From assembly GCA_040767085.1 (NCBI GenBank), contig JAXGPF010000009.1, positions 2,307 through 66,306 on the forward strand: a DNA stretch of 64,000 nt, written 5' to 3'. A program made the position numbers and the translations under genes. Origin of the DNA: Kiritimatiellia bacterium (GTDB taxonomy: Bacteria > Verrucomicrobiota > Kiritimatiellia > JAAZAB01). The notes beneath the pieces are model-generated. The model saw only the letters and a program-made list of their open reading frames with translations, searched no databases and was not told the origin of the DNA. This document shows, in pieces, positions 12,986 through 55,410 of the stretch (position 1 is its first letter; each line of letters starts with the position of its first letter).

Positions 12986-12989
12986 CACC

Positions 12990-15294: not shown

Positions 15295-16044
15295 CTACCC
15301 CCGGGGGCCGGACCGCGAACGGCGGGCCGGGCCGGGATGCAACCGGTTGATCTCAGCCAGCAAGTGCGCGGCCGCTTGGCGTTCGGCTTCGCGCTTGTTG
15401 GCGCCCGCACCCATGGCGGCGGTATTGCCCGCCGTCACACGCACCTGAAACTGGATCGCATGCGACGGGCCGCTGCGCCTGACCACTTCGTATTTCGGTC
15501 CGGATTTCCAGCGTTTCTGGGCCAGGGCCTGCAACTGGCCCTTTGGATTATCGCCCCAGAAGTCATGCGGATCTATGGCGATCGCCGGCAAGATGACTTT
15601 TTTGAAGATGCGGGCGACGGCCTTCAGGCCGCCATCCAGGTAGGCGGCGCCGAGAATGGCTTCCATGGCATCCAGCACGTTGGAATCCCGGCGGTTGCCG
15701 CCGGACAGGCGTTCGCCCTTGCCCAGGAGCAAGTAGTCGCCCAGCCCGATGGCGTGTCCCACCTGCGCCAGGGCTTCGCCGCTGGTGTAGCGGCTGCGCA
15801 GGCTAGTCAAGGCACCCTCCTGCAGTTCGGGATATTTCAGGTAAAGGAAATGGCCGACTACCAGGCCCAGGGCCGCGTCGCCGAGGTATTCCAGGCGCTG
15901 ATTATCGTCCTGGACGTTTTCGGTTTCGAACCGGTAGGATGGATGCGAAAGCGCCATGACCAGGCCGCGGCGGCGGCGGAAGGCATAACCCAGCTTCCGC
16001 TCGAGCTGACGGTACGGATTTTGGATGATGGAGAGCAATCTCAT
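15295..16044 (-). CDS. rnc: ribonuclease III
   Basis: RNase III signature ERLEYLGDAALGLVV plus a C-terminal dsRBD. Internal ATG at 16044 chosen; overlaps the xer stop by 4 nt. Confidence 0.8.
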   Translation of the reverse strand: MRLLSIIQNPYRQLERKLGYAFRRRRGLVMALSHPSYRFETENVQDDNQRLEYLGDAALGLVVGHFLYLKYPELQEGALTSLRSRYTSGEALAQVGHAIGLGDYLLLGKGERLSGGNRRDSNVLDAMEAILGAAYLDGGLKAVARIFKKVILPAIAIDPHDFWGDNPKGQLQALAQKRWKSGPKYEVVRRSGPSHAIQFQVRVTAGNTAAMGAGANKREAERQAAAHLLAEINRLHPGPARRSRSGPRG

Positions 16045-16928
16045 GCGCGTGGATGGAATTGGGTGTGAATGCTTTTCAACCGGGACTGATCGAGATGGGT
16101 GTAAATCTGGGTCGTGGCGATATCGGCATGCCCGAGCATCTCCTGGATCATGCGCAGGGGCGCTCCGTTGTATAAAAGGTGTGTGGCGAAGGAATGCCGC
16201 AGCGTGTGCGGGGAAATTTTCTTGCCGATACCGGCCCGGCGCGCATATTGTTTCACGAGGTGCCAGACGGTCTTGCGGCTCAGGGCGGCGCCGCGGCGGG
16301 AGAGGAACACCTCGCGGTCCGCGCGCTCGCCCAGTAAAACCGGCCGGACGGCGGCAAGATAAGTCTGCAGCAACCGCGCGCATGTTTCCGAAAACGGCAC
16401 CAGGCGCTCCTTTTCGCCTTTACCCACGCAGCGCAAAAAACCGGCGTCAAAATGCAGGTCGTCCACGCGCAGCCGGCAGATTTCAGACACGCGCAGGCCG
16501 GTGGCATACATCGTTTCCAGGATGGCGCGATCCCGCTGCCGGAGGGGCGCTTCCCCTTCCGGCGCGTGCAGCAATTGCTCCACCTCGCGCAGCGACAGGT
16601 TGGCCGGCAGCACTTTCCACAACCGCGGCGAATCCATCGCCGCCACCACATCGCGCGCCAGCAGATTCTCCTCGTGCAGGAACCGGAACCAGATGCGGAT
16701 ACTCACAAATTCCCGCGAAATGGAATTCAATCCCATGCCGCGCGCGCGCTCGTCCATCAGGAAATCCAGCACCAGCGCCCGGGTGACGCTGTTCAAGACC
16801 GCCACCCGGCGCCGTTCCAGGAAGCGCTTGAACTTCAACAAGTCGGCGGCATACGCCGCGCGGGTATTCGCGCTCAGCCCGCGCTCCAGGCTGACGTAAT
16901 CCAAAAACTGCTCAATCAACGTCTGCAT
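16041..16928 (-). CDS. tyrosine recombinase XerC/XerD family
   Basis: Phage-integrase fold with R...HxxR...Y motifs (ATGLRVSE; HTLRHSFATHLL; TQIYTH). Confidence 0.8.
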   Translation of the reverse strand: MQTLIEQFLDYVSLERGLSANTRAAYAADLLKFKRFLERRRVAVLNSVTRALVLDFLMDERARGMGLNSISREFVSIRIWFRFLHEENLLARDVVAAMDSPRLWKVLPANLSLREVEQLLHAPEGEAPLRQRDRAILETMYATGLRVSEICRLRVDDLHFDAGFLRCVGKGEKERLVPFSETCARLLQTYLAAVRPVLLGERADREVFLSRRGAALSRKTVWHLVKQYARRAGIGKKISPHTLRHSFATHLLYNGAPLRMIQEMLGHADIATTQIYTHLDQSRLKSIHTQFHPRA

Positions 16929-16945
16929 GCAATGGGCGGCACGAT

Positions 16946-17293
16946 TCAGCGGACGGCAGCCGGCAGGTTGGCCGCCGCGTTGGTGTTAGCCGGGATGTCA
17001 TTGGCATCGAATCCGGCATTGGCAATGATGAATTCCAGGTTTTTCCGGGCAATGACCATGGAATTATAGGTGACCCGCACGGTGCGGGCCGCGATGTCCG
17101 GCTGGACGGTTTTGATCCCCGGATAACGGATGAAGGCGTCCTGAACGATGCGGGCGCATTCCTGGTCCTTCAGACCTGGCACCTGGATCGTTACGGTGCG
17201 CATATCCTGCTTGCGGCAGCCGGATGCCCAGCAACATCCGGCGGCCAGCAGTCCGGCGATCAAAATCTTAAACCAGCGAAATGGGCAATCCAT
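16946..17293 (-). CDS. hypothetical lipoprotein (HMA-like fold without CxxC)
   Basis: Signal peptide plus lipobox (LLAAGCCWASGC). Short beta-alpha-beta-like domain. Confidence 0.4.
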   Translation of the reverse strand: MDCPFRWFKILIAGLLAAGCCWASGCRKQDMRTVTIQVPGLKDQECARIVQDAFIRYPGIKTVQPDIAARTVRVTYNSMVIARKNLEFIIANAGFDANDIPANTNAAANLPAAVR

Positions 17294-18428: not shown

Positions 18429-19580
18429 TCAAGCCGGCTGGTTTTTACGATCTAAAATCCGCGTGACGGCCCGGCGGACCAGGTCCGCTATCCGCAGCAG
18501 CGTTGATTGCCGGAACGCAACGGCATTCACCGGACAGACCTCGCTGCAGCAGCCGCATTCGATGCAGGCGCCCGAATCCAGAACTGGCGGCCCGGCCGCG
18601 GGCAGGGCGATGGCCGGCGCCGGACAGGCGGCGATGCAGCGCCCGCAGCGTATGCAATTGGGAGCAAATGCCGGGCGGTTCCACAACCAGGGCCTTAAAA
18701 GCCGCACCAGGCGCGCGGAAATCAACCGGTGGGCGAAGGTCGCCGGCAGTTCGAATGGCGGCAAAACCGAGGCGCCGTCCAGATCGCCCAAACAAACCGG
18801 AGCGAGCGGCGGAGTCGCCATCAGCAGCGGCGCCAGGCAGGGCAACTTGTCCGGCCGGATGCGCAGGAGACGGCAAAGCGCCAGTTCCAGGGCCGCCCCG
18901 TCATCAGCGGCAGCCAGAAATCCCAGGCGCACCGGCCGGCCGGCGGTCGGACCGTTCCCTTCCATGGCAGTGACGGCGTCGCAAATCGTCAACCCGGGCC
19001 GCACCAGGCCGTACAAATGCGCCATCAAGCCGCCCAGCATGGCCGGAGTGGGAAAGGCCTTGTGCAGGGCGGTTTTCTGGGCGCCGGGCAGCACGCCGAA
19101 GATGTTTTTAACGGGGCCGGTCAAAATCGTCAGCAAATGCGTCTTCAACTTCGGCACATTGACGATCAAGTCCGCTTCCAGCACCGGCCGGGCAATGCTG
19201 AACGGCACGCCCTGGTAGTTAAAAAGGCGGGCGCCGGACTGCTCCAGGTTCAATAAAGGCGTGTGTTCGTCGGCGCACATTGCGGCAAATCCCGTGGCTT
19301 CCCAGACGCGTTCCATTTTATGTGGCGCGGCGGCGCTGTCGGCCACCGCCACGGTATGGCCCTGCCGGCGCAGATGGCGGATAATGGCGCGCACGACTTC
19401 CGGGTGGGTCGTGGCGGCGTGCTCGGGCGGTCGGTCGGTCAGCAGGTTGGGCTTGATCAGCACGCGCCGGCCCCCTCCCGCCAATGCTGCCGGGCGCAGC
19501 GTATCCAGGAGGCGCCCCAGCGCCGCCGCCACCGCCGCCGGCTGGTAGTCCGCGCATCTGGCGAAAGCGACCGCCGTCAT
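18429..19580 (-). CDS. DUF362-like protein with C-terminal 2x[4Fe-4S] ferredoxin domain
   Basis: Two CxxCxxCxxxCP motifs (CIRCGRCIAACP; CIECGCCSEVCP) at the C-terminus. The N-terminal domain resembles DUF362. Confidence 0.55.
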   Translation of the reverse strand: MTAVAFARCADYQPAAVAAALGRLLDTLRPAALAGGGRRVLIKPNLLTDRPPEHAATTHPEVVRAIIRHLRRQGHTVAVADSAAAPHKMERVWEATGFAAMCADEHTPLLNLEQSGARLFNYQGVPFSIARPVLEADLIVNVPKLKTHLLTILTGPVKNIFGVLPGAQKTALHKAFPTPAMLGGLMAHLYGLVRPGLTICDAVTAMEGNGPTAGRPVRLGFLAAADDGAALELALCRLLRIRPDKLPCLAPLLMATPPLAPVCLGDLDGASVLPPFELPATFAHRLISARLVRLLRPWLWNRPAFAPNCIRCGRCIAACPAPAIALPAAGPPVLDSGACIECGCCSEVCPVNAVAFRQSTLLRIADLVRRAVTRILDRKNQPA

Positions 19581-27096: not shown

Positions 27097-28851
27097 TTGT
27101 TTCGATTCGGAACAGGATTATTGCCGCCGCCAACAGGAAGGTTCAGGATGGACGCTGTTTCGCCTTTGTCGCACCCACTGGCGCGCGGCGCCGCGCTGGC
27201 GCTGGCCGCGGCGCTGCTGGTCATGCTCTTCGGCCGCGGCTTGATGGACCCCGACGAGGGGCGCTACGCCGAAATCCCGCGCGAGATGGCGGTGTCGGGC
27301 AACTGGATGGAAATGCGCCTGTTGGGATTCCGGTATTATGAAAAGCCCCCCCTGGCCTACTGGCTGACCGCCCCGGCAATCCTGGCCTGCGGCGCCCGCG
27401 ACTGGGCGGTGCGGATTCCGCTGGCGCTCAACCTTGCCGGCATGGCCTGGCTGTTTTACCGGTTGATGCGCCGGGAATGGCCGGCCGACTCCAGCCGTTG
27501 GACACTGCTCATCGGTTCCGCATCCCTGGGCTTTACCGCCGGCTTCACGCTCCTGATGACCGATCCGTTCCTGGCGCTGTTTTTTAGTTTGACCTGCTAC
27601 TGGGCGTACCTATGGTTTGAGACACCGCCGCCAGCCGCGGGACGGCGCGCCCGGCTGGCCGTCGCCGCCGGCGCCGCCGCCGCGCTGGGTTTCCTGACCA
27701 AGGGCGCCGTGGCGGCGGTACTGCCCGGCGCCATCATCCTGATCTGGGCGGCATGGGAACGCCGGCTGCGCCAGCTGCGCTTTTCGCTGTTGGCCTGGGC
27801 CGGCGTGATTTTCCTGGCCATCGCCGGCAGCGCCCTGCTCCTGATCGAGCGGCACAACCCGGGCTTTTTCCTGCATTTTATCTGGAATGAACATATCGCC
27901 CGCTTTACCGGCACCCGCGAATTGCAGGGCCATCCGGAGCCGTTCTGGTATTTCGGCTATATCATACCGCTGCTGCTGGCGCCGTGGACGCTGTTCCTGG
28001 CGCGCGCGGCCAGGATGATGGCGGCGCGGCGCGCGCTTCAGACCGACCGTCTGACGCGCCTGCTGCTGGTCTGGGCTGGCGTCGTGGTGTTCTTTTTTTC
28101 CGCCAGCACGGGCAAACTGATGTCCTACATCCTGCCGGCCATCTTTCCCATCCTGATCCTGCTGGGCCGCTGGGGGATCGCTGAACCGTTCGACGGCACA
28201 GAGGCCGACCGCCGCTTGATCCGGTGGGGAACCGCCGGAACGCTGCTCATCATGGCGGCTTTGATCCTGGCCTGGGCGGCCAGTTACACGGACATCTTCC
28301 CGGACAAACTACAGCCGGTCCGCGGCGCCAGCATCCTGGCCTTACTGCCGCTGGCTGCCTGTGGTTGGCCGGCTCTGCGCTGCTGGCGCGCCGGCAGCGA
28401 CTTCCGTCCGCCCGTGGCGCTATTGAACGCCGGCATTCTCCTGACCGCGGCCTTGATGCTGACCCCGCTTCCCGGCCGCTGTTTCAACGTTACCGCCCGC
28501 AAAAACTCGGCCATCGTCTACCAGGCCCTGGCCGGCCGCCTGACGCCGGCGGACCGCCTGGTCTCGTTATGGTCCTACCGTCCTTCGCTGGCTTTTTATA
28601 CCGGGCGGATTTACCGGCCGTACCAAAGCCGGAACGAACTGCTGTTCGGCATGCGCATGGAGCCGGGCCGTCCGGCCGATATGCAGCATCCGGATGAAAT
28701 CCGCGCTTTGGCCGCCGGCACCCCGGGCCGGGTGTACGCCCTGGTTGAGCCGGATGATTACGTCAAGCGGTTGCCGGAACTAGGGCTTAAATTCCAGGCA
28801 ACGGATTTGCCGTGCGATCCCAGGACCATCATCCTGGAAGTTGTGCCGTGA
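27097..28851 (+). CDS. glycosyltransferase family 39/83 protein (ArnT/PMT-like)
   Basis: Periplasmic-loop DE motif (MDPDEGRYAEI...YYEKPPLAYWL) after TM1. About 11 TM helices. An alternative start at 27148 is possible. Confidence 0.65.
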   Translation: MFRFGTGLLPPPTGRFRMDAVSPLSHPLARGAALALAAALLVMLFGRGLMDPDEGRYAEIPREMAVSGNWMEMRLLGFRYYEKPPLAYWLTAPAILACGARDWAVRIPLALNLAGMAWLFYRLMRREWPADSSRWTLLIGSASLGFTAGFTLLMTDPFLALFFSLTCYWAYLWFETPPPAAGRRARLAVAAGAAAALGFLTKGAVAAVLPGAIILIWAAWERRLRQLRFSLLAWAGVIFLAIAGSALLLIERHNPGFFLHFIWNEHIARFTGTRELQGHPEPFWYFGYIIPLLLAPWTLFLARAARMMAARRALQTDRLTRLLLVWAGVVVFFFSASTGKLMSYILPAIFPILILLGRWGIAEPFDGTEADRRLIRWGTAGTLLIMAALILAWAASYTDIFPDKLQPVRGASILALLPLAACGWPALRCWRAGSDFRPPVALLNAGILLTAALMLTPLPGRCFNVTARKNSAIVYQALAGRLTPADRLVSLWSYRPSLAFYTGRIYRPYQSRNELLFGMRMEPGRPADMQHPDEIRALAAGTPGRVYALVEPDDYVKRLPELGLKFQATDLPCDPRTIILEVVP

Positions 28852-28903
28852 AAGGCCGCGGAAAGGGCTTGTCACAGCATCGTACAAACGCTAGATTACT
28901 GAT

Positions 28904-29758
28904 ATGAATGACTCTTCCAGCGAAAATAATTCCGGCGATTCCGCATCGGAAATTCTGAACGCCATCGCGGCTTTCGAAAAAATCCTGGAAGCGATCCCGA
29001 ACGATCGCATTTCCCTGGAAACCCTCGCCGATGCGTACGACAAGATCGGCGACCGCGCCCGCGCCCGGACTTACCTGCTGCGCCTGGGAGACGCGCTGCT
29101 CGAGGAAAAAGACGAGGATGCCGCCCGGGACCTGCTGCACAAGCTGCGCGCCTACGCGCCCAACGACGCCGAAGTCCAGAACATTATCGCCCGCATCGAG
29201 AGAATGGAGCCCGAAAAAATCCGGGCCATGGTTTTGGACGCTCCCGGCCAGCCGGCGGCGCCCCGCACCGCCAACATCGCCGCGGAAATTTCTTTCGCAT
29301 GGAATTTACTGCAGGCGAAAAAACTGACCCAGGAAGAATATGCCGGCGTAGTGCGTGACCTGACGGAAAATTCCGCCAAGTCCGCCGTTATCACCGTTTC
29401 CACTCTGCACGTGTTGAATGACCGGAATTTCCCGGGGATGAACGAGGTGCTGGCATTCGTCGCCGGCGCCTGCAACACCCCCATGATCTGCCTGGCCAAT
29501 TTCGAGATCCCGCCCGAAACAGCGGCGCTGCTGCCATTGGAATTCACCATCCGGCGCGGGGCGATCATTTTTGAACTGATGGGCAAAGATGCGCTGGCGG
29601 CCGTGCTCAACCCATACGACGAACAACTGGCCATGGATATCGAAGACCTGACGGGCAAACCGGCCTACCTGTATCTGGTGCACCCATCCGACTTCGACGC
29701 CGCCATCGACAAAATCAAGCAAGCCCTGGCGCCGCCGGCATCCGGATCGAATGCTTAA
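28904..29758 (+). CDS. TPR-like protein with C-terminal GspE-N/MshEN-like domain
   Basis: N-terminal helical repeats. The C-terminal 90 aa (LLPLEFTIRRGAIIFELMGKDALAAVLNPYDEQLAMDIEDLTGKPAYLYLVHPSDFDAAI) match the T2SSE_N/MshEN pattern. Confidence 0.5.
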   Translation: MNDSSSENNSGDSASEILNAIAAFEKILEAIPNDRISLETLADAYDKIGDRARARTYLLRLGDALLEEKDEDAARDLLHKLRAYAPNDAEVQNIIARIERMEPEKIRAMVLDAPGQPAAPRTANIAAEISFAWNLLQAKKLTQEEYAGVVRDLTENSAKSAVITVSTLHVLNDRNFPGMNEVLAFVAGACNTPMICLANFEIPPETAALLPLEFTIRRGAIIFELMGKDALAAVLNPYDEQLAMDIEDLTGKPAYLYLVHPSDFDAAIDKIKQALAPPASGSNA

Positions 29759-29805
29759 CGTCCCCGGCGTCCGGCCCGGGCCGGCGCCGCCGGCCCGGCG
29801 GCGCC

Positions 29806-30389
29806 ATGACGCCGGCCCTGTGCGCTTCAGATTTTCCCGGCAGCGCCCAACTGGCGGCGCAGTTGCAAAGGCGGCAGACCCGTAGTCTGGCGTATCAGGC
29901 GGGAAAAATAATTCGGATCCCGGAAGCCGCACTTGCCGGCCGCGCCGCTTCTTCCATATCGGGATGGATGAAGATCACGACCGCTCCCATACCCAATTCG
30001 CGGCGGCCGTGAATGTGCTGGCGGCTGGCCTGCAACAGCGGGGCCTGCGCGCAGTCATGTGGCGCGATACCCGCCTGGACGCGCGCGGCCTGGTGTTCAA
30101 TGAAAAACACAGCGCCGTGGAAAAAGCATTGCCTGCCAGCGTGGTGCGGATGGTCTGGAATTACGAAGGCGTCAGCGACACGGAAACCATCCGGGCCATG
30201 TGGGATGGCGGGTTTGAAATCTGGGCGGGAATTGCCGGCGCCAAGCCGGAATCCGCCGCTGCGTGGGCGCGCCTGCTGGCCCACCCCGGTAATCCGCATC
30301 CCGGCATCATCATCACCAACTGGAAACCCTGCATCCCGGCCTACCGTCCCTTCCATCTGGGCATGCTGAATGCGCTGGCTGGGGTTTAA
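29806..30389 (+). pseudogene. possible frameshifted remnant of a glycoside-hydrolase-like gene
   Basis: Coding-like signal in two different frames (ORFs 29806..30012 and 29964..30389). The junction translates FFHIGMDEDHD, reminiscent of the H-x-G-G-D-E motif of GH20-type hydrolases. Located in an otherwise empty convergent gap. Confidence 0.25.
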
Positions 30390-31300
30390 TACAGCGTAGC
30401 GCCCACCCTCAGGAAACGCGTTTCACCTTGGTAGCGGAGCAAAACACCGTCTTCCTGTATTTTCAGTAGGATGACCCCTTCTATCTGGCTCCCTGAAAAA
30501 ACCATGGTATTGTTGAGCCGCGCGGCGCCTTCACCGGGAACCGCGCTGCACAAAACACCCGATAAATTTAAGCGCGGCCATATTACCGGCGGGGCGGGCT
30601 GGACGGCAACCGCCGCCGGCGACACCTGTGGCTTCGGCACGGGTGCAGCAGCCACTTCCGCCGGGGACGGCGGCGGAGCTAACGCGGCAGGCGCATTGGC
30701 GTCCGGCGCGCTGTCAGGCGCCGTAACTGGAGCCGGCGCAGCCCCGTCTGCAGTGGCCGGCGCCAAGACGGGCGGCGGCGCGGGCGCTGGAGATGCAGCC
30801 GGGCCGGAGGCGGCGGCAGCGGCAGAATTATCCTGGGGTGGCGCAACCTCAGCCGGCACTGAAGCGGGCGCGCCCGGTTCGGAAGCTGCCGCGGGCAATG
30901 ACGCCAATTGCGTACGCTCCGCACCATGCTGGAAATGCCGCCAGGCCATCCACAACAAGCCAAAGACGGCCGCCAGGATCAACAAGACTGCCAGGACCAC
31001 GCCCAGCATCCCCAACCAGGGGCGCCGCGTCTTGTCAGCCAAGGGCGGCGGATCGCGCGGCTCTTCCGAAAATGCTTCCGGCTCCGGCACGGACTTGCGC
31101 ATCGAAAGCTTGCCGGGCGCCGGAGTATGTCCCGGCGCCGGCCGGGGTTCCGGCACCGGCCGGGGCTCCGGCGCCGGCGGAGGGGGCGTTTTCTCCGTCG
31201 GTGCGGCCGTGCCATCCGGCGGCGCGCTGGCCGCTTCTGGTGACCGTCCATTGCCGAACTCCGCCTGCTGCCTTCTAAGGGCTTCCTGAATCAAACTCAT
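30386..31300 (-). CDS. GspB/ExeB-like protein (Pro/Ala-rich, single TM, conserved C-terminal domain)
   Basis: Cytoplasmic Pro-rich N-terminus. TM helix (LGMLGVVLAVLLILAAVFGLLW). Periplasmic low-complexity linker. C-terminal block (VFSGSQIEGVILLKIQEDGVLLRYQGETRFLRV) resembling the GspB C-terminal domain. Start overlaps the gspA-like stop. Confidence 0.5.
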   Translation of the reverse strand: MSLIQEALRRQQAEFGNGRSPEAASAPPDGTAAPTEKTPPPPAPEPRPVPEPRPAPGHTPAPGKLSMRKSVPEPEAFSEEPRDPPPLADKTRRPWLGMLGVVLAVLLILAAVFGLLWMAWRHFQHGAERTQLASLPAAASEPGAPASVPAEVAPPQDNSAAAAASGPAASPAPAPPPVLAPATADGAAPAPVTAPDSAPDANAPAALAPPPSPAEVAAAPVPKPQVSPAAVAVQPAPPVIWPRLNLSGVLCSAVPGEGAARLNNTMVFSGSQIEGVILLKIQEDGVLLRYQGETRFLRVGATLY

Positions 31301-32106
31301 ATATTTCCCTCCAACTGTCTGATGGCTTTTTCAACGCAGGGCTTTTCAATGACCCTGACATTCGCGACATAGCCGGCCAACAGGGTGATATCGCACAAAG
31401 CATTGACCAGGCGCGGCACACCTTTGGTGTACTCGTAGACACGCCGCAAGGCCTCGGCGCGGAATAATTCGCCGCCAGCCCAACCGGCAGTCCGCAGACG
31501 ATGGCGGACGTAATCGCCAATTTCCTCTTCCGTCAGCGGCAGCAAGTGATAACGGACAGTGATCCGCTGGCGCAATTGCCGCAATTCCGGCGCCGCCAGG
31601 CGCTGTTTTAATTCCGGCTGCCCGCACAGCACGATTTGCAGGAGTTTGTGCTGGTCGGTCTCCAGGTTGGACAGCAAACGCACCTGTTCCAGGACGGCCG
31701 GCGTAAGGTCCTGCGCTTCGTCAATAATGACCGCCACATTATTGCCATTGCGCAATTGTTCCAGCAGAAAGGCGTTCAAACACTCGATATAGGCCAGGCG
31801 GTCGCGCCCTTTGACGCTCAAGCCGAAATCAGCCAGAATTGCCCGCAGCAACTGGCTCTCCGTCAGGCAGGGATTCAAGACCATGGCCGTCTGGATCGTA
31901 CTCGACAGCCTGGACAAAACGGCCCGGCAGAGCGTAGTTTTACCCGCGCCGACTTCGCCGGTCAATTCGATGAAGCCCTTGCGGTGTTCGATGCCGTAAA
32001 GCAGGTGATCGAACGCCTCGCGGTGTCGCGGCGTGAAGAAGAGGAACCGCGGGTCCGGAGTGATGTTGAAAGGCGCTTCTTTCAGGCCGTAATGTTGAAA
32101 ATACAT
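31297..32106 (-). CDS. GspA/ExeA-like AAA ATPase (general secretion pathway protein A family)
   Basis: Walker A GEVGAGKTT. Walker B VIIDEAQDL. ExeA-like N-terminus (YGLKEAPFNITPDPRFLF). Confidence 0.65.
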   Translation of the reverse strand: MYFQHYGLKEAPFNITPDPRFLFFTPRHREAFDHLLYGIEHRKGFIELTGEVGAGKTTLCRAVLSRLSSTIQTAMVLNPCLTESQLLRAILADFGLSVKGRDRLAYIECLNAFLLEQLRNGNNVAVIIDEAQDLTPAVLEQVRLLSNLETDQHKLLQIVLCGQPELKQRLAAPELRQLRQRITVRYHLLPLTEEEIGDYVRHRLRTAGWAGGELFRAEALRRVYEYTKGVPRLVNALCDITLLAGYVANVRVIEKPCVEKAIRQLEGNI

Positions 32107-32109
32107 AAT

Positions 32110-32988
32110 TCAATCATGCGCATGATCGGCGTCGTCCTGGTGCATATCAGATTCGCCGACATGGTCATGTTGGCATATATGCCGGTTATGTGCAAGCAAG
32201 TTATCCAGCAGGTCCGCCGCGGGCGGGCGGGGTTGTTCGCCGCGGCGCAGGGCCGCAAGGCGGGCGCGCACGCCGGTGCGCGCCGGGAAAATATCGAGGA
32301 TGCCTTCGTGCAATTCCGCCGCCAGCGCCGTTTGGCCCTGCAGTTCGGCCAGCAAGGCGCGGTACATTTTCATCTGGGCCGCATCCAGGCGCGCATCGTC
32401 ATCATCACTGGCCAGCGGATGCGGCCAGAGACGCAGGCCGGCATCGAGCGTGCTGGCCGCGGCCGGCCAGCGGCCGCGGCGCATCCAGAGCCGGCCCTGT
32501 TCCAGAAAAATCCGGTAATCGCGGGGATGGTGGCGATAAGCTTCGCGAAGCAATTCCAGCGCCAGATCCGGCCGGCCGAGTTGTTCGGCCAACCAGAAAG
32601 ATCCCACCGCATAGGCCGTGACATTGCCCGGATCCATCCGTGTGGCAATAAACAGCCATGGCAGCACTTCCTGCATTTCGCCGGGTTGCAGGTGTTGCTG
32701 CACCCGGGGCGCGACGGCGTCATGCAGCGCGCTGAACCAGCCGTTAAAAGCCCGGGGCGGCGGCGCGGAAACCCCTTTGTGAAACACGCTATCCGCCTTT
32801 AAAAACAAGCGTTCACCCAGCGCGGACCGGCTGCCGCCCAGCAGGCGCAGGAAGACCGTCGTGCCGGCGGCGCGGGAAGGCTCCCCCGCCGCCGGGCCGG
32901 CCTGGACAAAAATCAGGCAAGCCAGGCTGAAGGCCGACGCCCACAAGGCCCCGGTCAAAAGCAGAGGATGCATCATGGATGTGCGCAT
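32110..32988 (-). CDS. secreted TPR-like protein with His/Asp-rich C-terminus
   Basis: Signal peptide. TPR-like helices. C-terminal tail HNRHICQHDHVGESDMHQDDADHAHD. Confidence 0.45.
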   Translation of the reverse strand: MRTSMMHPLLLTGALWASAFSLACLIFVQAGPAAGEPSRAAGTTVFLRLLGGSRSALGERLFLKADSVFHKGVSAPPPRAFNGWFSALHDAVAPRVQQHLQPGEMQEVLPWLFIATRMDPGNVTAYAVGSFWLAEQLGRPDLALELLREAYRHHPRDYRIFLEQGRLWMRRGRWPAAASTLDAGLRLWPHPLASDDDDARLDAAQMKMYRALLAELQGQTALAAELHEGILDIFPARTGVRARLAALRRGEQPRPPAADLLDNLLAHNRHICQHDHVGESDMHQDDADHAHD

Positions 32989-33003
32989 GCTCTCTTCCTT
33001 GCC

Positions 33004-33792
33004 TCAAATCCGCGCGGCGCGTGAAAATTTCTTGTTGCGGTAAACCAGCCAGGCGGCGGACAGCAACAAGCCCGTCAACACCGCTCCGTACGCCAGGATC
33101 ATGCCCACCGCGGCCCAATCCGCCGGCGGCCAGTCATGCGCCAGGCGCAGGCGCAGATCGAACAATTCCAGGTGCGGCAGGGCAAAGTAAAGGGCGAGCA
33201 GCAGATCGTGCCGGGTTCCGGCGGCATGCAGGATCAACTCCGGAATCCGCGGCGCCAGGAAATAGGCGCTCAGGCTCCAGACATAAGCCAGCGCCGCGGC
33301 GGCATCGTAATTCATGCAGGTGGAAAGCAGGACGCTCATCGCCGCCAGCACGGCCAGGCAGGCAGCCTGGAGCAAGCCATGCTGGATGAAAATGGCGCCC
33401 GCAAAAGAACCGCCCCGCAGCGCCACGATCGCCGCCAGCACGGCATGCAGCCACAGGCAGGCGGCCAGGCCGCCCAACCAGGCGCCCAACCATTTGCCGG
33501 CCAGCAGTTGCCAGCGGGTCAGCGGCTTGGACAGGAGGATGAATATCGTGCCTTCCGCTTCCTCGCGCGGCAGCTGGCGCGCGGCGTAATTGACGGTCAG
33601 GTACCAGGCGCAAATCCAGACCATCAGCAATCCGATTTCCTTGACGTAGCCGGGCATCCCGCCCAAGCCGAAAATATTCAAAGAAATCATGCCCAGCAGG
33701 AACGCGGCCATCAAGATCAGCAGGACGTAGACGTCCTTGCGGCGCAGCATTTCCAGCCAGACAATCTGGGCAATGGTCAGGATTTTGCGCAT
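33004..33792 (-). CDS. ABC-2 type transporter permease
   Basis: Six hydrophobic helices. The internal ATG at 33792 overlaps the ATPase gene end. Confidence 0.55.
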   Translation of the reverse strand: MRKILTIAQIVWLEMLRRKDVYVLLILMAAFLLGMISLNIFGLGGMPGYVKEIGLLMVWICAWYLTVNYAARQLPREEAEGTIFILLSKPLTRWQLLAGKWLGAWLGGLAACLWLHAVLAAIVALRGGSFAGAIFIQHGLLQAACLAVLAAMSVLLSTCMNYDAAAALAYVWSLSAYFLAPRIPELILHAAGTRHDLLLALYFALPHLELFDLRLRLAHDWPPADWAAVGMILAYGAVLTGLLLSAAWLVYRNKKFSRAARI

Positions 33793-34511
33793 GCCAGCAG
33801 CCTCAGAAAATATTGCTCCAGACTTTCGCCCGGACGCGCCAGGCCGGCAATCGGGCCGGACGCCGCCAGGCGCCCCCGGACGATAATGCCAACGCTGTCG
33901 CATACTTTTTCCACTTCCGACAATTCGTGCGAGGAAAAAAACACCGTGCACCCGCGTGCGCGCAGTTCTTCCATGATCCGCCGGACTTCGATGCGGCCGG
34001 GCGGATCGAAACCGCTGGTCGGCTCGTCAAGGATCACCAGTTCCGGATCGTTGATTAAGGCTTGCGCCAGCCCCAGACGTTGCAGCATGCCCCGCGAATA
34101 AACGGCAATCCGCCGGTCCGCCGCGCCGGCCAGCCCTACCCGTTCCAGCAGGACGCCGGCCCGCCGGCGCGCCGCCGCGGCCGTCAGGTCAAAGAGCCGA
34201 CCCATCATGCACAACAATTCCCGCCCGGTCAGAAACCGGTAAATCTCCGGCCGCTCGGACATGTACCCGATCCGGCTGCGCGCCAGCGCCTGGCGGACAT
34301 CCCCGCCCAGAATCCGCAGCGTGCCGGAAGTCGGTGCGATAAATCCCAGCAGCGCGTGGACGGTGGTGGTTTTGCCGGCGCCGTTGGGGCCGATAAAGCC
34401 GAATACCTGCCCGCGCGGCACGCTCAGATTCAAGCCGTCCACCGCGCGCACACTCCCATGGCGCGCGGGAAATTCCACCACGAGGTTTTGTATTTCAATC
34501 GCCGGATTCAT
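33777..34511 (-). CDS. ABC transporter ATP-binding protein
   Basis: Walker A GPNGAGKTT. Signature YSRGMLQRLGLA. Walker B LVILDEPTSG. Confidence 0.85.
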   Translation of the reverse strand: MNPAIEIQNLVVEFPARHGSVRAVDGLNLSVPRGQVFGFIGPNGAGKTTTVHALLGFIAPTSGTLRILGGDVRQALARSRIGYMSERPEIYRFLTGRELLCMMGRLFDLTAAAARRRAGVLLERVGLAGAADRRIAVYSRGMLQRLGLAQALINDPELVILDEPTSGFDPPGRIEVRRIMEELRARGCTVFFSSHELSEVEKVCDSVGIIVRGRLAASGPIAGLARPGESLEQYFLRLLACAKS

Positions 34512-35886
34512 GAGCCATCGCCATCAATTGGTCTATCTTGCGTTGAAAATAACGCCGTTGGCGCGCCGTGGCAAGCTTTTCCTGCGCGATCCGACGGCGC
34601 AACCCGGACCAGTCCAGCCCGGCCGTGCCCCCCAGGTGGGTTTTGCGTGCGATCGCGGCGGCCGGATCGGCGTCCTGCAAATCCGCCAGGTGTTCCTTGA
34701 CATACCGGTAAGCGTCGCGGAAGGCCATGCCCTCGGCGGTCAATTCCAGGGCGCGGTCGGCGGCGAAAACGGCGGGAGTAAATCCCCGGCGCAGGGCTGC
34801 CCGGTCAACGGCCAAGCCGGCGATCAAGGGGCGCATGACGCAGAGCGATCCGCGGACGACCTGGAAGCCGCGCATGAACGGCGCCTTGGTCTCCTGCAAG
34901 TCGCGGTTGTACCCGCCCGGCAGACCCTTCACCATGTCCGCCACGCCGAAAGCATCCGCCAGCGCGGCCGCGGCGCGGGCGCGCAACAATTCCAGGATGT
35001 CGGGATTGTTCTTCTGGGGCATGATGCTGCTGCCTGTGCAAAGTTCCGGCGGCAGGCGGAAATACCCGAACTCCGGCATGGTGAAAAGCATCAGGTCCTG
35101 CGCCAGGCGCGAGAGGGTCAGCATGATCTGCGATAACGCCATCAGGATCATGGATTCCAGTTTTCCGCGGGCGTTGGCGGCAGCCATCACGTTGTGGCAG
35201 GGCGCGGCAAATCCCAGCAGTTTCGCCGTCAACCGCCGGTCGAGCGGCAGCGGCACCCCGTACCCGGCCGCCGAACCCAGGGGGCACCGGTCGTTCAGAT
35301 CATAGGCGCTCCGCAGCAAAACCATGTCGTCCAGCAGCCCCTCGGCATAGGCGCCGGCCCACAATCCGACGGAACTGGGCATAGCCGGCTGCATATGCGT
35401 GCGCCCCACCATCGGCAACCGGCGGTAGCGGCAGGCGAAGGCCGCCAGGGCTGACGCCAATTCCAGCAATTCCGCTTCCACGGCGAGCATCTGGTCCTTG
35501 GCGTACAGCCGCAAATCCACGGCTACCTGGTCATTGCGGCTGCGGCCGGTATGCACCCGGCGGCCCAGTTCGCCCAGCCGCGCGGTCAAAACCCGTTCCA
35601 CGGCCAGGTGCACATCCTGATCGGCGATGGTGATTGCAAACCGGCCCTGCCGGGCGAGGCGCCGGATGCGGCCGAGTTCGGCCACAACCCGCGCCGCATC
35701 CGTACGGCTGAACAAACGGGGGCGCACGGGTATTTGCGCCAGCATGACGACATGCGCCGCGGTGCCAATGCAATCGGCGTCCACCAGGTTTCGATCCAGA
35801 CGCAAATCCTCGCCGGCCGTGTATTCCAGCGCCAGCGGCGCAATAGCGCCTACGGTTGTTTGCAGCTTGCCGTCGGATGCCGCCAT
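34495..35886 (-). CDS. argH: argininosuccinate lyase
   Basis: Fumarate-lyase signature GSSIMPQKNNPD and ASL-specific TGRSRNDQVAVDLRLY. Confidence 0.85.
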   Translation of the reverse strand: MAASDGKLQTTVGAIAPLALEYTAGEDLRLDRNLVDADCIGTAAHVVMLAQIPVRPRLFSRTDAARVVAELGRIRRLARQGRFAITIADQDVHLAVERVLTARLGELGRRVHTGRSRNDQVAVDLRLYAKDQMLAVEAELLELASALAAFACRYRRLPMVGRTHMQPAMPSSVGLWAGAYAEGLLDDMVLLRSAYDLNDRCPLGSAAGYGVPLPLDRRLTAKLLGFAAPCHNVMAAANARGKLESMILMALSQIMLTLSRLAQDLMLFTMPEFGYFRLPPELCTGSSIMPQKNNPDILELLRARAAAALADAFGVADMVKGLPGGYNRDLQETKAPFMRGFQVVRGSLCVMRPLIAGLAVDRAALRRGFTPAVFAADRALELTAEGMAFRDAYRYVKEHLADLQDADPAAAIARKTHLGGTAGLDWSGLRRRIAQEKLATARQRRYFQRKIDQLMAMAHESGD

Positions 35887-36027: not shown

Positions 36028-36903
36028 ATGCAAAAACATTTCGACAATCAAATCCGCCGGGTCGAAAACATCCTGGAAGCAAGGCTGCCGCCCGCCGACG
36101 CCATGCCGCAGCCATTGCACACCGCCATGCGGTACAGTGTTTTCGCGGGGGGCAAACGCCTGCGCCCGCTCTTGTGCCTCGCAGCCGCCGCGGCTGCCGG
36201 CGGCGATGACACGCCGGCCCTGCTGCCCGCCGCGGCCCTGGAAGCGCTGCACACCTATACCCTGATCCATGACGACTTGCCCGGCATGGATAACGACAGT
36301 TTGCGCCGCGGCCGGCCCACGCTCCACGTAGTTTACGGTGAAGCCATCGCCATTCTGGCCGGGGATGCTCTCTTGACCCTGGCCTTCGAATGGCTGGCCG
36401 AGACCCATGCCACCCCGCCCTATCATCCCAATCAATTGAGCCTGGAACTGGCCCAAGCCGCCGGGAGCCGGGGCGTCATTGCCGGGCAGGCGGAAGATAT
36501 TGCCGCCGAACGCCAGCCGCCAAATCCGGCCCGTCTGGAATTCATCCATCGGCATAAAACCGGCGACCTGATTCGCGCCGCCGTCCGCATGGGCGCCATC
36601 GCCGCCGGTGCGTCCCCCGGCGTCCTGGCAGGGGTGACAGCTTACGGCGAGCATATCGGCCTGGCGTTCCAGATCGTGGATGATTTGCTGAACGCCACGG
36701 CGGAGGTCGGACAACTGGGTAAAGCGGCCGGCAGCGATGCCCAGCGCGGCAAAATGACCTGGGTGTCGGTGCATGGCCTGGCGGCCGCGCGCCAGGCCGC
36801 CGATCGCCTGGCCGCAACAGCCCGGCGCGATTTGCAGGGACTGCCGGGCGACACGGCCCCATTGCGCGAACTGGCGCGGATGATGATTGAACGCAACAAA
36901 TAA
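36028..36903 (+). CDS. ispA: polyprenyl diphosphate synthase (FPP/GGPP synthase family)
   Basis: FARM LIHDDLPGMDNDSLRRG and SARM FQIVDDLLN motifs. ATG at 36028 chosen; the ORF extends further upstream. Confidence 0.8.
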   Translation: MQKHFDNQIRRVENILEARLPPADAMPQPLHTAMRYSVFAGGKRLRPLLCLAAAAAAGGDDTPALLPAAALEALHTYTLIHDDLPGMDNDSLRRGRPTLHVVYGEAIAILAGDALLTLAFEWLAETHATPPYHPNQLSLELAQAAGSRGVIAGQAEDIAAERQPPNPARLEFIHRHKTGDLIRAAVRMGAIAAGASPGVLAGVTAYGEHIGLAFQIVDDLLNATAEVGQLGKAAGSDAQRGKMTWVSVHGLAAARQAADRLAATARRDLQGLPGDTAPLRELARMMIERNK

Positions 36904-36908
36904 CACGT

Positions 36909-38168
36909 ATGCACCCGCCGTTGAAATATCTGCAAGCTGCCGCCGGCACGGCCCTGGCCCTCCTGATCTGGACCTTTGCCTCCAAAGCGCTGCAGGATGC
37001 CGTTGTTTTTGGCGCCGCCCTTTACGCCATGTATGCCGCCTGGCGCACCGGCCGCGAGTTGGCTGCCTGGCGCCAACCGGCGGGCATGGCTTTTACGGCG
37101 GTGGCCCTTTACATGGCATTATCCCTGCCTTGCTCGCGCGCGCCGGCGGCATCGTTTCGGGATTTCACAGGCCTATTGGAGATTTTCGCCGGCGCGTTTG
37201 CCATCCCGGTGATTTTCAACACCAGGCCGCGGCTGGAGGCGGCCCTGCTGTATAGCGCCAATGCCGTTGTTTTAACGCTGGCCTTTGACCTCGGCCGGCT
37301 CGCTTGCCTGCTCGGACCGGACTTGATGGAGCAGGCCCATGCCTTCCAGCCTTTCATTTTGAATCACAGCAACGTCGCCAGCATGCTGGCGGGACTGGCG
37401 GCGCTGGCGTACTTTTACTTCTTCTGGCAGTGGCGCCAAACCAGGCGCTGGCCGGCGCGCGCCTGCCTGTTGGGCATGTCCGCCGCCCTGGCTTACCAGG
37501 TCGTGCTGGCTTCCCGCGGGCCGCAGCTGGCACTGGCATTGACGGCAGCCGCGATGGGCGCGCTCCTGCCGGGCGCGCGCCGCAAGATTGCCTGGGGTCT
37601 GGCCGCGGCCTGCCTGGGAGCGCTGCTGGCGGGCCATGCGGGAAAGCTGAACCGGCGCATCGTCCCGCCGCCGCCCGACCCGGCGGCGGCCGCCGCGCCC
37701 GCCAGCACGCCGACCCCAGCCGTCCGCATCGCAGAAATTTTACGGCGCAACCTGAATCAGCGCGACATTGTCTGGGAGCACACCTGGCGCCTGGCACGGC
37801 AACGCCCGTGGTTCGGCCATGGTTATGGCAAGCGCAACTTCACCAGCATCTATTACCAGAATGAACCGCCGCCGGCGGATTTTTATTATCCGCACCCGCA
37901 TCAATACTGGCTCAAATTATTCTTCGAATTCGGCTGGACGGGCCTGCTGCTGCATTTGGCGGCCTGGTTGTGTCTGGCATGGCAATTGATGCGCCGCATC
38001 TACCGGGAACCGACCTTCAGCGCGCGGCTCTGGCCGGGCATCCCCGCTTTAATGCTGCTGTGCATTCACCTGTATGGATTGGGCGATTACCCGGACAATC
38101 TCGTTCAAACCGCCCAAATCTGGCTGATACCGGTGGCGCTGGCAATTATCGCCGAACGCGCCGAATGA
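36909..38168 (+). CDS. O-antigen ligase (Wzy_C)-family membrane protein
   Basis: About 10 TM helices with a large periplasmic loop. Wzy_C-like region (LASRGPQLALAL). Confidence 0.5.
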   Translation: MHPPLKYLQAAAGTALALLIWTFASKALQDAVVFGAALYAMYAAWRTGRELAAWRQPAGMAFTAVALYMALSLPCSRAPAASFRDFTGLLEIFAGAFAIPVIFNTRPRLEAALLYSANAVVLTLAFDLGRLACLLGPDLMEQAHAFQPFILNHSNVASMLAGLAALAYFYFFWQWRQTRRWPARACLLGMSAALAYQVVLASRGPQLALALTAAAMGALLPGARRKIAWGLAAACLGALLAGHAGKLNRRIVPPPPDPAAAAAPASTPTPAVRIAEILRRNLNQRDIVWEHTWRLARQRPWFGHGYGKRNFTSIYYQNEPPPADFYYPHPHQYWLKLFFEFGWTGLLLHLAAWLCLAWQLMRRIYREPTFSARLWPGIPALMLLCIHLYGLGDYPDNLVQTAQIWLIPVALAIIAERAE

Positions 38169-46100: not shown

Positions 46101-47009
46101 CTAAGCCGGCGCCGGAATTTCCGCCAGCGCCAGTTCCATGATCCGACGGCACAAATCCGCGAACGGCAGACCCGCGGCGGCCGCGGCCTTCGGCAGCAGG
46201 CTGGTTTCGGTAAAACCGGGAATGGTGTTCAATTCCAGCGCGAACAACGCGCCATCATCGCGCAGACGGAAATCCACCCGGCCGAACCCGCGTCCGCCTA
46301 AAACCTGAAACGTCCGGACGGCCAAATCCTGGCAGCGCCCTGCGGTTTCCTCCGGGAGGGGCGCGGGGGCGAGGTATTCCGTCACGCCCTGGGTATACTT
46401 GGCGCGGTAATCGTAGTTGCTGTCGGGCGCGCGGATTTCCACCACCGGCAATGCCTGGCCGCCCACAATCCCCACCGTCAACTCGCGCCCCGGAATGTAT
46501 TCCTCGACCACCACCGCGCCGTTATAAGCCATGGCGTCCGCCAGCGCGGCGTCCCATTCCGCTTCACGGAGCACCCGGTGCACACCGAAGCTCGATCCCT
46601 GGCGCGGCGGTTTAACCACAGCCGGCAAGGGCATCTGACGGCGTCCGCCGGGTTGCAGCACTTCGTATCCCGGCGTGGGGATGCCGTTGGACAGCATGGC
46701 TTGCTTGGAAAGTATTTTGTCGAAAGCCAGCCGGCTGGCTGCCGGCCCCGAGCCGGTGTAAGGCACCCCCAACACTTCCAGGCGTTCCTGCACGGCGCCA
46801 TCCTCGCCGAATTCACCGTGCAGCGCGATGAACGCCGCCTGCGCGTTTTCCGGCAGAACCAGTTCCGGTCCGGTGATATCAACTTCCTCGACCATGTAGC
46901 CAGCCTGGCGCAAACCGCGCGCCACAGCCGCGCCGGAACGCAGCGACACTTCGCGTTCCTTGGAAAAACCGCCCATTAAAACCGCAATTGTAGCACCCAT
47001 ATCAATCAC
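46101..47009 (-). CDS. ddl: D-alanine--D-alanine ligase
   Basis: ATP-grasp motifs (ALHGEFGEDGAVQ; GVPYTGSG; ELNTIPGFT). Confidence 0.85.
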   Translation of the reverse strand: MIDMGATIAVLMGGFSKEREVSLRSGAAVARGLRQAGYMVEEVDITGPELVLPENAQAAFIALHGEFGEDGAVQERLEVLGVPYTGSGPAASRLAFDKILSKQAMLSNGIPTPGYEVLQPGGRRQMPLPAVVKPPRQGSSFGVHRVLREAEWDAALADAMAYNGAVVVEEYIPGRELTVGIVGGQALPVVEIRAPDSNYDYRAKYTQGVTEYLAPAPLPEETAGRCQDLAVRTFQVLGGRGFGRVDFRLRDDGALFALELNTIPGFTETSLLPKAAAAAGLPFADLCRRIMELALAEIPAPA

Positions 47010-54122: not shown

Positions 54123-54895
54123 CAGCGGGCAATTCCCCGTTCCGAAGCCTCGATAAATTCTATCAGGTGCTGCACTTCCGGCGCCAGCGGCACATTTTGC
54201 CGGATTTTTTCCAGGGCCTGGCGCGTGTTGAGGTTTTCGCGGTACAAAATCCGGTAGGCTGTTTTCAGATGCTGGCGCGCCTCATCGGAGATCCCGCGCC
54301 GCTGGAGGGCGACGGCATTGACGCCATGCACCGCCGCGGGATTGCCGTCAGCCATCATGTACGGGGGGATATCCTGGGTGGCCTTGGAACAGCCGCCCAT
54401 GATGGACATGCGGCCGATGCGCACAAACTGGTGCACGCCGCACAAGCCGCCGATGACGGCGAAATCCTCCACCGTCACATGGCCGGCCAGGGTGCCGGCA
54501 TTGGAAATGATCACGCCGTTGCCCACCGTGCATTGATGCGCCACATGCGAATAGGCCATGATGTGGCACCCCTCGCCCACCCGCGTCACATCGCCCTCGT
54601 TGGTGCCGGAGTTGACGGTGACATATTCCCGGAGCGTCGTGCGCGCGCCGATTTCCACAAAAGTTTTCCCGCCCTTGAACTTCAGGTCCTGCGTCTGCGA
54701 GCCGATGCTGGCGAACGGGAAAATCACGCAATCCGGGCCGATAGTCGTATGCCCATCCAGGAAAACATGCGGCATGACGCGCGTCCGCGCCCCCAGCCGC
54801 ACATGCGGCCCGACGATCGCATAAGCGCCGACCGCCACGTCCGCATCCAGCTCCGCGCCGGACTCGATAACCGCGGTGGGATGAATCAGGGTCAT
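54122..54895 (-). CDS. lpxA: acyl-ACP--UDP-N-acetylglucosamine O-acyltransferase
   Basis: Left-handed beta-helix hexapeptide repeats starting MTLIHPTAVIESGAEL, catalytic His region (MAYSHVAHQC), and C-terminal helical domain. Confidence 0.85.
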   Translation of the reverse strand: MTLIHPTAVIESGAELDADVAVGAYAIVGPHVRLGARTRVMPHVFLDGHTTIGPDCVIFPFASIGSQTQDLKFKGGKTFVEIGARTTLREYVTVNSGTNEGDVTRVGEGCHIMAYSHVAHQCTVGNGVIISNAGTLAGHVTVEDFAVIGGLCGVHQFVRIGRMSIMGGCSKATQDIPPYMMADGNPAAVHGVNAVALQRRGISDEARQHLKTAYRILYRENLNTRQALEKIRQNVPLAPEVQHLIEFIEASERGIAR

Positions 54896-55338: not shown

Positions 55339-55410
55339 AAAGGCTCCCCTTCTGCTGCATCGCGTTCCCTGCCGACGGCGGCCAACGCTGCTCGTTTGAC
55401 TGCTTTTCAA

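Follow-up and report, generated by a model that had tools for sequence, protein, structure and literature searches.

A GspA/GspB-type gene pair in a conserved block associated with type IV pilus genes in Kiritimatiellia

Genes of the block

We studied a block of genes at positions 27097–34511 of a 64-kb window (the whole stretch of DNA that was analysed) from contig JAXGPF010000009.1 of a Kiritimatiellia bacterium; all coordinates are in window numbering. At the core of the block are two minus-strand genes, one encoding a 269-residue AAA+ ATPase of the GspA/ExeA/MshM type (31297–32106) and the other a GspB-like, proline-rich bitopic protein of 304 residues (30386–31300). Genes for an ABC transporter ATPase, an ABC-2 type permease and an exported or membrane-anchored tetratricopeptide repeat (TPR) protein precede them on the same strand, and genes for an ArnT-like GT-C glycosyltransferase and a cytoplasmic TPR protein with an MshEN domain converge on them from the plus strand. 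An earlier reading made from the letters of the DNA (hereafter, the sequence-only reading) had listed these seven genes. Open reading frame (ORF) and profile evidence located all of them in the order and on the strands it had given, and its GspA-like, GspB-like, MshEN, PMT_2 and ABC-2 assignments survived profile searches, with that of GspB also upheld by fold. The block is best described as a variant of the GspA/GspB pair in the Planctomycetes-Verrucomicrobia-Chlamydiae (PVC) lineage, set in a type IVa pilus supercluster, to which the lineage has made two additions of its own, an ABC-2/TPR trio and a TPR-MshEN protein that stands alone.

The ATPase matched the AAA_22 profile (E = 1.3e-26) and has the Walker A motif GEVGAGKTT and the Walker B motif DEAQ. 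ATPase activity is plausible because these residues were invariant, as GxxGxGKTT and DEAQ, in an alignment of 20 ATPases. The best 120 protein matches were 65–90% identical to it and nearly all were exactly 269 residues long. Exact or near-exact copies of the block proteins were present in Kiritimatiellia metagenome assemblies, where they are named “ExeA family protein” or “general secretion pathway protein A”. In size the ATPase resembles the short GspA of Alteromonas; a short GspA with a longer GspB is the archetype in Alteromonas and Pseudoalteromonas (PMC9239104). That survey reported GspB only from gamma- and beta-proteobacteria, whereas we found the pair in PVC bacteria, Acidobacteriota and Omnitrophota. 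Searches of the PDB by sequence with the GspA-like and GspB-like proteins gave no informative matches.

The GspB-like partner begins with the peptide MSLIQEALRR, followed by a Pro-rich cytoplasmic stretch, a transmembrane segment at residues 98–116, a periplasmic linker of ~120 residues (24% Pro, 33% Ala) and a C-terminal HR domain at ~241–304. The segment at 98–116 was the only hydrophobic one, as expected of a single-pass inner-membrane protein. By sequence the window protein was a marginal member of the T2SSB family (E = 2.4e-6; 27.5 bits, just below the gathering score of 28.4). Among the partner-family members, 31 of 61 matched Pfam T2SSB (best E = 1.6e-8) and others matched the related domains CdsD_C, T2SSC and Y4YQ_C. 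An AlphaFold2 model of residues 225–304 had six strands and a mean predicted local distance difference test score (pLDDT) of 89.4, and the best structural match to the C-terminal domain in a fold search was OutB of Dickeya dadantii (PDB 4wfw). Because the T2SSB family matches, the modelled HR fold and the bitopic topology agree, the GspB assignment stands as far as domain and architecture are concerned.

The partner belongs to a large family (at least 1,453 clusters at 50% identity with E ≤ 1e-10) that the searchable literature does not describe. Its middle region evolves fast (mean column identity 18%), and M1, S2, A7 and L8 of the N-terminal peptide are invariant. A minus-strand ORF at 29895–30356 was rejected as the GspB gene as it had no family match and poor codon bias. 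An apparent GspB-CAAX fusion in one related locus (L074; related loci are given L numbers) was likewise rejected, as an artefact that arose where an ORF of another frame had been called too long.

The gene convergent with that of the partner (28904–29758, +) encodes a 284-residue cytoplasmic protein matching TPR_19 and MshEN (PF05157; E = 1.4e-10). In its AlphaFold2 model (pLDDT 83.6) five TPR-like helices (residues 11–99) were joined by a disordered linker to a complete MshEN/GSPII domain (125–275), and the C-terminal ~150 residues had the two-subdomain MshEN/GSPII fold. The top Foldseek match was GSPII-A of Thermus PilF (9g1w; E = 6e-6, target TM-score 0.76). Further Foldseek matches were to PilF GSPII-B, the Xanthomonas citri PilB N-terminus with PilZ and MshE with cyclic di-GMP (c-di-GMP), and the entries 9g1w, 8pdk, 7lkm and 5htl together spanned E = 6e-6 to 2e-3. 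The family had 216 members at E ≤ 1e-5; the matches listed were 273–313 residues long and all had Kiritimatiellia, Lentisphaerae or Verrucomicrobia as source names.

The sequence-only reading had proposed that this protein binds c-di-GMP, and our results did not support that proposal. The c-di-GMP motif is a tandem repeat of the 24-residue pattern RLGxx(L/V/I)(L/V/I)xxG(L/V/I)(L/V/I)xxxxLxxxLxxQ (PMC5013675). In an alignment, the stand-alone protein had neither Arg nor Gln where the two motifs call for them. The protein did not match the NCBIfam c-di-GMP motif model NF053729, to which a neighbouring PilB of the relatives scored 35.7 bits, just below the cut-off. No strict or relaxed form of the motif was found in any of 58 family members by regular expression, which is a weak control as the expression also missed 15 neighbouring PilBs. 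GSPII-A, which gave the top fold match, is the domain of PilF that has no c-di-GMP binding (PMC12002112). The window protein thus has the full fold of the PilF GSPII-A/MshEN family with a consensus degenerate as in GSPII-A (PMC12002112, PMC5013675), and differs from PilF and MshE in that its domain stands alone, joined to TPR helices, where theirs forms the N-terminal part of a traffic ATPase. It most likely does not sense c-di-GMP in the canonical way, to judge from these residues. The most economical reading of its sequence is that it would mimic the N-terminus of PilB and act on PilB or the platform protein.

Upstream of the ATPase gene are those for a 292-residue TPR protein (32110–32988, −; TPR_16, TPR_14 and TPR_19), a 262-residue ABC-2 type permease (33004–33792, −; ABC2_membrane_2, PF12679, E = 1.4e-9; multiple transmembrane segments) and a 244-residue ABC transporter ATPase of the DrrA/GldA/NodI type (33777–34511, −; ABC_tran, PF00005, E = 1.9e-29). 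The ABC ATPase scored 220 bits against the drrA subfamily and 170 bits against GldA, both below cut-off. The block has the ABC_tran ATPase and ABC-2 family permease genes side by side, as expected of an ABC-2 exporter. The most likely start codon of the permease is the ATG at 33792 (262 residues, the call made in L001), in place of the GTG at 33951. In the TPR protein, an F-S-L-A-C within the hydrophobic segment at the N-terminus is kept in most orthologs, and an AD..FH.G motif is conserved along with the TPR repeats. The F-S-L-A-C is no canonical lipobox, and its Cys was not present in L015 and L018. The tail is acidic and variable; it is His-rich in the window, as the sequence-only reading had noted, but the His count ranged from 0 to 12 among orthologs, so that this feature is specific to some lineages. 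We also considered the TPR protein as a type IVa pilus secretin pilotin of the PilF/PilW/Tgl type (outer-membrane lipoproteins of ~250 residues made up of TPRs alone), and the profile search gave generic TPR matches only.

The sequence-only reading had placed the start of the minus-strand operon at the ABC ATPase gene. The tight packing it had noted was confirmed, and the operon probably begins one gene earlier, with argH (34495–35886, −; argininosuccinate lyase, TIGR00838 287.9 bits, cut-off 279.5). The argH gene overlaps that of the ABC ATPase by 17 nt and the latter overlaps the permease gene by 16 nt. The gaps between permease and TPR genes and between TPR and GspA genes are 15 nt and 3 nt, respectively, and the GspA and GspB genes overlap by 4 nt. 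As the spacing ranges only from a 17-nt overlap to a 15-nt gap, a single transcript from argH is likely, and a promoter-like site was seen upstream of argH at 35976–35948. We consider argH probably the first gene of this operon and a conserved neighbour without functional membership; it was upstream of the ABC genes in 7 of the 16 loci of the clade described below (window counted).

Conservation of the pair and the block in related genomes

A genome scan with one genome per species gave 80 loci in which the ATPase was 53–76% identical to that of the window (53–90% over all relatives). The loci were labelled Kiritimatiellia, Lentisphaerae, Verrucomicrobiia, Thermoanaerobaculia and Omnitrophota. 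Enough downstream sequence for a count of partners was present in 78 loci, and at least 64 of these had, directly after the ATPase gene, a gene for a protein with the motif MSLI(N/Q)(D/E)ALK(R/K), one transmembrane segment and a C-terminal beta-rich domain. The start of the partner gene overlapped the stop of the ATPase gene by 4 nt in 56 of the 64 partner-bearing loci.

Conservation of the wider block was analysed in a Kiritimatiellia/Lentisphaerae clade of 16 distinct loci, one of them the window, in which ATPase identity was 63% or higher. The GspB-like gene was directly downstream of the ATPase gene in all 16, and the TPR-MshEN gene was convergent and adjacent in 14. One of the other two loci (L010) was without a TPR-MshEN gene, and in the other (L019) the gene was ~10 kb from the pair, having moved together with pilB-pilC. 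The genes for the ABC ATPase, the permease and the TPR protein were upstream in the same order in 12 of the 15 loci with enough flank (63–90% ATPase identity). In 11 of the 16 loci a pilB-like gene was within 5 kb, and most of these also had pilC and genes for a sigma-54 response regulator and a prepilin; the TPR-MshEN gene was divergent from pilB in most loci of the clade. The two loci with a long enough flank also had pilM. The assembly ATPase of the relatives matched the PilB model TIGR02538 from end to end (650 bits, cut-off 676), and the best matches of the platform protein and the pilin were Myxococcus PilC and PilA, respectively.

These data show that the block is a lineage-wide core synteny and that the pair sits in a type IV pilus cluster in most close relatives. 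What the sequence-only reading had missed is this decisive pilus context, namely the pilB-like gene and its usual companions. Synteny of its seven-gene block stood for six of the genes and failed for the GT39 (GT-C) glycosyltransferase gene, which adjoins the block in the window only. Two further observations were made on the pilus clusters. In L008 (2624–6380) and L014 (12679–16145) there were two tandem pilB-like ATPase genes. In the Lentisphaerae/Verrucomicrobiota-labelled L011 (6136–7365) and L016 (7460–8674), a second, longer ExeA-like ATPase gene (~405–410 residues) lay between the TPR-MshEN gene and pilB; its product scored 175 bits against TIGR03015 over the first 265 residues.

The exception, the GT-C gene (27097–28851, +), encodes a PMT_2-type enzyme by profile (PF13231, E = 1.8e-12) that failed the ArnT equivalog test, with 192.7 bits over residues 34–430 and a cut-off of 567 bits. 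It was next to the block in 1 of the 16 clade loci and in none of the 80 genome loci, and it occupies the site where relatives have pilB-pilC. The two operons are convergent, as the sequence-only reading had said, but they do not abut, as a 627-nt spacer (29759–30385) separates the stop codons of the GspB-like and TPR-MshEN genes; in relatives this spacer is 0–112 nt. It contains the C-terminal remnant of an AraC-family gene (~29838–29945, −; the last ~35 codons, ending ...FRDPNYFSRLIRQTTGLPPLQLRRQLGAAGKI*) and a 141-residue ORF (29964–30389, +) with good codon bias and no Pfam family match. An Rfam scan and a repeat search around the junction found only G+C-rich chance matches. In L002, genes for RNase III and a XerC/D-type recombinase (15630–17233) come directly after pilC; their counterparts in the window (15295–16928) are ~11 kb from the TPR-MshEN gene in inverted orientation, consistent with an inversion or insertion that took pilB-pilC from the junction. 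The gene content of the junction indicates that a rearrangement in the sub-lineage of the window removed pilB-pilC and placed an unrelated GT-C gene there. Because the GT-C gene adjoins the block only in the window, and does so at the pilB-pilC site, with a gene remnant at the junction, we regard it as a neighbour by rearrangement and not as a member of the module. For annotation, it should stay ungrouped from the block.

These results also bear on a proposal of the sequence-only reading, namely that the block could be a glycoconjugate-export module. In that case a lipid-linked sugar conjugate would be made by the ArnT-like GT-C enzyme and carried out by the ABC-2 transporter, aided by the TPR and GspA/GspB proteins. 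Such a module would account for a PMT_2/ArnT-like enzyme adjoining the block and an ABC-2 exporter inside it, and for the Wzy_C and polyprenyl synthase genes just beyond argH. As the GT39 gene falls outside the block, being absent from it in the 15 related clade loci and in the 80 genome loci, the proposal loses its basis and is largely refuted. The GT-C gene is, in addition, on the strand opposite to the ABC operon and takes the place of pilB-pilC, at a junction that a gene-remnant spacer marks. We consider glycoconjugate export very improbable; secretin piloting, the other idea of the sequence-only reading, was the better of the two.

The same comparisons raise the question of how much of the block works with the pair. 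The GspA-GspB pair could be the only functional unit, with the ABC-2, TPR and TPR-MshEN genes merely conserved neighbours serving, for example, metal or small-molecule export. The ABC/TPR genes were not next to the pair in L004, L010 and L016, nor in any locus outside the clade; the housekeeping gene argH shows just as much synteny and also has an overlap with the ABC gene; and an ABC2_membrane_2 permease and a His/Asp-rich tail are compatible with metal handling. Set against this are the spacing of the ABC, permease, TPR and GspA genes in the window (16-nt overlap to 15-nt gap), the repetition of that gene order in 12 of 15 clade loci at 63–90% ATPase identity, and the TPR-MshEN gene, which adjoins the pair in 14 of 16 loci and in the broken locus L019 has moved with pilB-pilC. 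There is also the precedent of an ABC transporter essential for pilus biogenesis, the PilGHI transporter of Myxococcus (PMC3724824). On balance we think it improbable that the pair acts without the other conserved genes.

Outside the clade, the pair was found in another context. In 31 loci, nearly all labelled Verrucomicrobiota and one Omnitrophota, it was followed by a gene for a CPBP/CAAX protease of the family TIGR03008 (pepcterm_CAAX; e.g., L026 and L061), which scored 154 bits against a cut-off of 81 bits, and hisD and hisC lay upstream of the pair in these loci. The closest curated family of the window ATPase is NCBIfam TIGR03015 (XrtA/PEP-CTERM system-associated ATPase), in or next to which its sequence places it: the match was end to end, over the same length, at 305.1 bits, below the 324.5-bit cut-off. 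Among relatives, L061 (325.2 bits) and L087 (332.7 bits), from Verrucomicrobiia and Omnitrophota, passed the cut-off and L026, L035 and L004 (304–320 bits) did not.

These profile scores, together with a TIGR03008 equivalog directly after the pair, would fit a pair that belongs to a PEP-CTERM/exosortase system for protein sorting and exopolysaccharide, its pilus neighbourhood in Kiritimatiellia being secondary. What speaks against such an assignment, beyond the sub-threshold score of the window ATPase, is that neither the window nor any of the 15 related clade loci had a CAAX gene, and that a crude regular expression found no PEP-CTERM-like C-terminal tail among the window ORFs. Exosortase and PEP-CTERM genes were likewise not seen in these loci, although no exosortase profile was run and the window covers only 64 kb of its genome. 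Furthermore, the HR domain of the partner is a fold that binds secretin N0 domains, and the context in the clade is that of pilB, pilC and pilin genes. We therefore regard a primary role in PEP-CTERM sorting as unlikely, while noting that it need not exclude a role at a secretin.

Surroundings of the block

The sequence-only reading had called the block accessory-looking, a description that its surroundings and its lineage-wide synteny contradict. One flank has genes for EF-G, YebC, RuvC/RuvA and CorA; the other has those for a polyprenyl synthase, a Wzy_C protein and a GntR-type regulator, ftsQAZ and mur genes. With these housekeeping genes on the flanks and an even G+C content across the window (0.59–0.65), an accessory island was rejected.

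Several features of these flanks are recorded here as observations in their own right. The polyprenyl synthase and Wzy_C genes (~36030–38168, +) are divergent from argH, an arrangement kept in L006 and L007. The Wzy_C protein (O-antigen ligase or PglL-PilO-like) could, being near pilus genes, be a pilin O-oligosaccharyltransferase. Within the mur/fts cluster, a 792-residue ORF (47002–49380, −) with Mur ligase and MurB domains (FAD_binding_4, MurB_C) appears to be a MurC-MurB fusion. An 834-residue ORF (12750–15254, +) combines a major facilitator superfamily transporter domain with C-terminal HEAT/PBS-lyase repeats, an unusual architecture, and its start may be over-extended. HydF and radical-SAM genes at 7494–8765 and 11951–12985 suggest [FeFe]-hydrogenase maturation and, with a DUF362/4Fe-4S protein (18429–19580), fit an anaerobic way of life. 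Two LpxA-type acyltransferase paralogues (Hexapep and Acetyltransf_11; 54122–54895 and 57294–58112) are less than 4 kb apart.

The statement of the sequence-only reading that no gspC–M genes occur nearby was literally true of the block, but the window does contain a gene for a GspD-type secretin (52155–54122, −), 21 kb from the GspB-like gene. Its product had N0, three Secretin_N and Secretin domains by Pfam and scored 415.7 bits against TIGR02517, above the equivalog cut-off of 351.35 bits. In the window the gene order is fabZ-lpxA-gspD, with a 1-nt overlap of gspD and lpxA, followed by a CDP-alcohol phosphatidyltransferase gene (52155–55482 in all), which also follows gspD in a 92%-identical contig. 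Relatives whose secretins were 54–62% identical had fabZ-lpxA-gspD-gspE-gspF and then unrelated genes; the lineage of the window has lost this adjacency of gspE and gspF to the secretin gene. A GspC-type HR protein was not found among the nine genes scanned downstream of gspD in the relatives.

A candidate secretin-assembly pair and its meaning

The block can be compared with better-known systems. The first is the GspA/GspB pair (ExeA/ExeB, EpsA/EpsB) of Aeromonas and Vibrio, with which the window ATPase shares the AAA+ core and the position immediately upstream of gspB. The HR domains of OutB, GspC and PilP each bind the N0 domain of their own secretin, and ExeB both binds the N0N1 region of ExeD and serves as a scaffold between ExeA and the secretin (PMC9239104, PMC4098917). 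The window pair differs in the N-terminal MSLIxxALxR peptide of its partner and in having type IVa pilus genes, not type II secretion system (T2SS) genes, as neighbours in its relatives. OutB of D. dadantii has the same bitopic topology as the partner, and its HR domain binds the secretin N0. Unlike the partner, which ends right after the HR domain, OutB has a peptidoglycan-attaching C-terminal extension, and it works without GspA and pairs with the pilotin OutS.

The second system is the MSHA pilus with its proteins MshM, MshN and MshE (PMC6668835, PMC5013675), in which genes for a short ATPase of the ExeA type, for a TPR protein and for an assembly ATPase bearing an MshEN domain likewise lie together with those of a type IV pilus; the MSH pilus model counts mshM among its mandatory genes (PMC6668835). 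The likeness is one of gene content. In the block the partner of the ATPase is a GspB-like HR protein, an MshEN domain is additionally found in a protein of its own, fused to TPRs, and the machinery of the relatives is type IVa-like, with pilM and a PilR-like regulator. The third system, PilG/PilH/PilI of Myxococcus xanthus (PMC3724824, PMC6060248), has the same combination of ABC ATPase, ABC-2-type permease and accessory gene in a type IVa pilus cluster. Here again the likeness is one of gene arrangement, and the accessory protein of the block is a TPR protein. The statement of the sequence-only reading that the arrangement is not a described one was therefore half right: short GspA with long GspB has been published (PMC9239104), and MshM-type ATPases and ABC transporters in pilus clusters have precedents (PMC6668835, PMC3724824). 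Our literature searches on Kiritimatiellia pili or secretion and on GspA/GspB in Verrucomicrobia found nothing.

Based on the HR fold, the gene coupling and the context in relatives, we propose that the functional core of the block is a pair for secretin assembly or scaffolding of the GspA/GspB type, to which we assign a probability of about 55%. The 269-residue ATPase would stay in the cytoplasm, and its translationally coupled partner would span the inner membrane once, with its N-terminal MSLIQEALRR peptide docking on the ATPase. On its ~120-residue Pro/Ala-rich tether, the HR domain would bind the N0 domain of a secretin, either the GspD of the window or the PilQ of a type IVa pilus, and, like ExeB and OutB, would thereby position or stabilise it. 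Because the lineage has both T2SS-type and type IVa pilus-type systems, either secretin could be the target of the HR domain. The upstream ABC-2 transporter and exported TPR protein may be analogous to Myxococcus PilGHI or to TPR pilotins, and the TPR-MshEN protein, copying the N-terminal domain of PilB, may be an adaptor or regulator directed at PilB or the platform protein.

Several results weigh against this proposal. Its main weakness is the distance to a secretin gene, as none of the 80 genome loci had one within 10 kb of the pair. Genes of the exeAB type need not be linked to their T2SS operon. In addition, pilB and pilC are found neither in the 64-kb window nor in the locus of the closest relative (L006, 90% identical). 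The window ATPase had no hydrophobic (transmembrane) segment and no match to the peptidoglycan-binding domain PF01471, the features that define GspA of Aeromonas and Vibrio. The loci with a CAAX protease gene were without pilus genes nearby, and it is their ATPases that reached the TIGR03015 cut-off (325 and 333 bits). A PDB profile search with the exported TPR protein gave generic TPR proteins only, and the roles we suggest for it and for the ABC-2 transporter derive from synteny alone.

Secretin positioning and assembly are understood only in a few Proteobacteria. What is new here is a GspB-type HR protein that is strictly coupled to a highly conserved soluble ATPase and is common in PVC bacteria, Thermoanaerobaculia and Omnitrophota. 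A secretin-assembly role would offer a concrete function for a family that NCBI labels “PEP-CTERM system-associated ATPase”, and the TPR-MshEN protein, as a stand-alone copy of the PilB N-terminal domain, is a candidate pilus regulator. More speculatively, the pair may be a widespread, undescribed device that couples cytoplasmic ATP hydrolysis to secretin N0 rings outside the Proteobacteria (in PVC bacteria, Acidobacteriota and Omnitrophota). It would then have been recruited lineage by lineage, to type IVa pili with the TPR-MshEN adaptor in Kiritimatiellia and to CPBP/PEP-CTERM sorting in Verrucomicrobiia. We hold this broader idea to be a long shot; if it is correct, PEP-CTERM cargo would leave the cell through a secretin.

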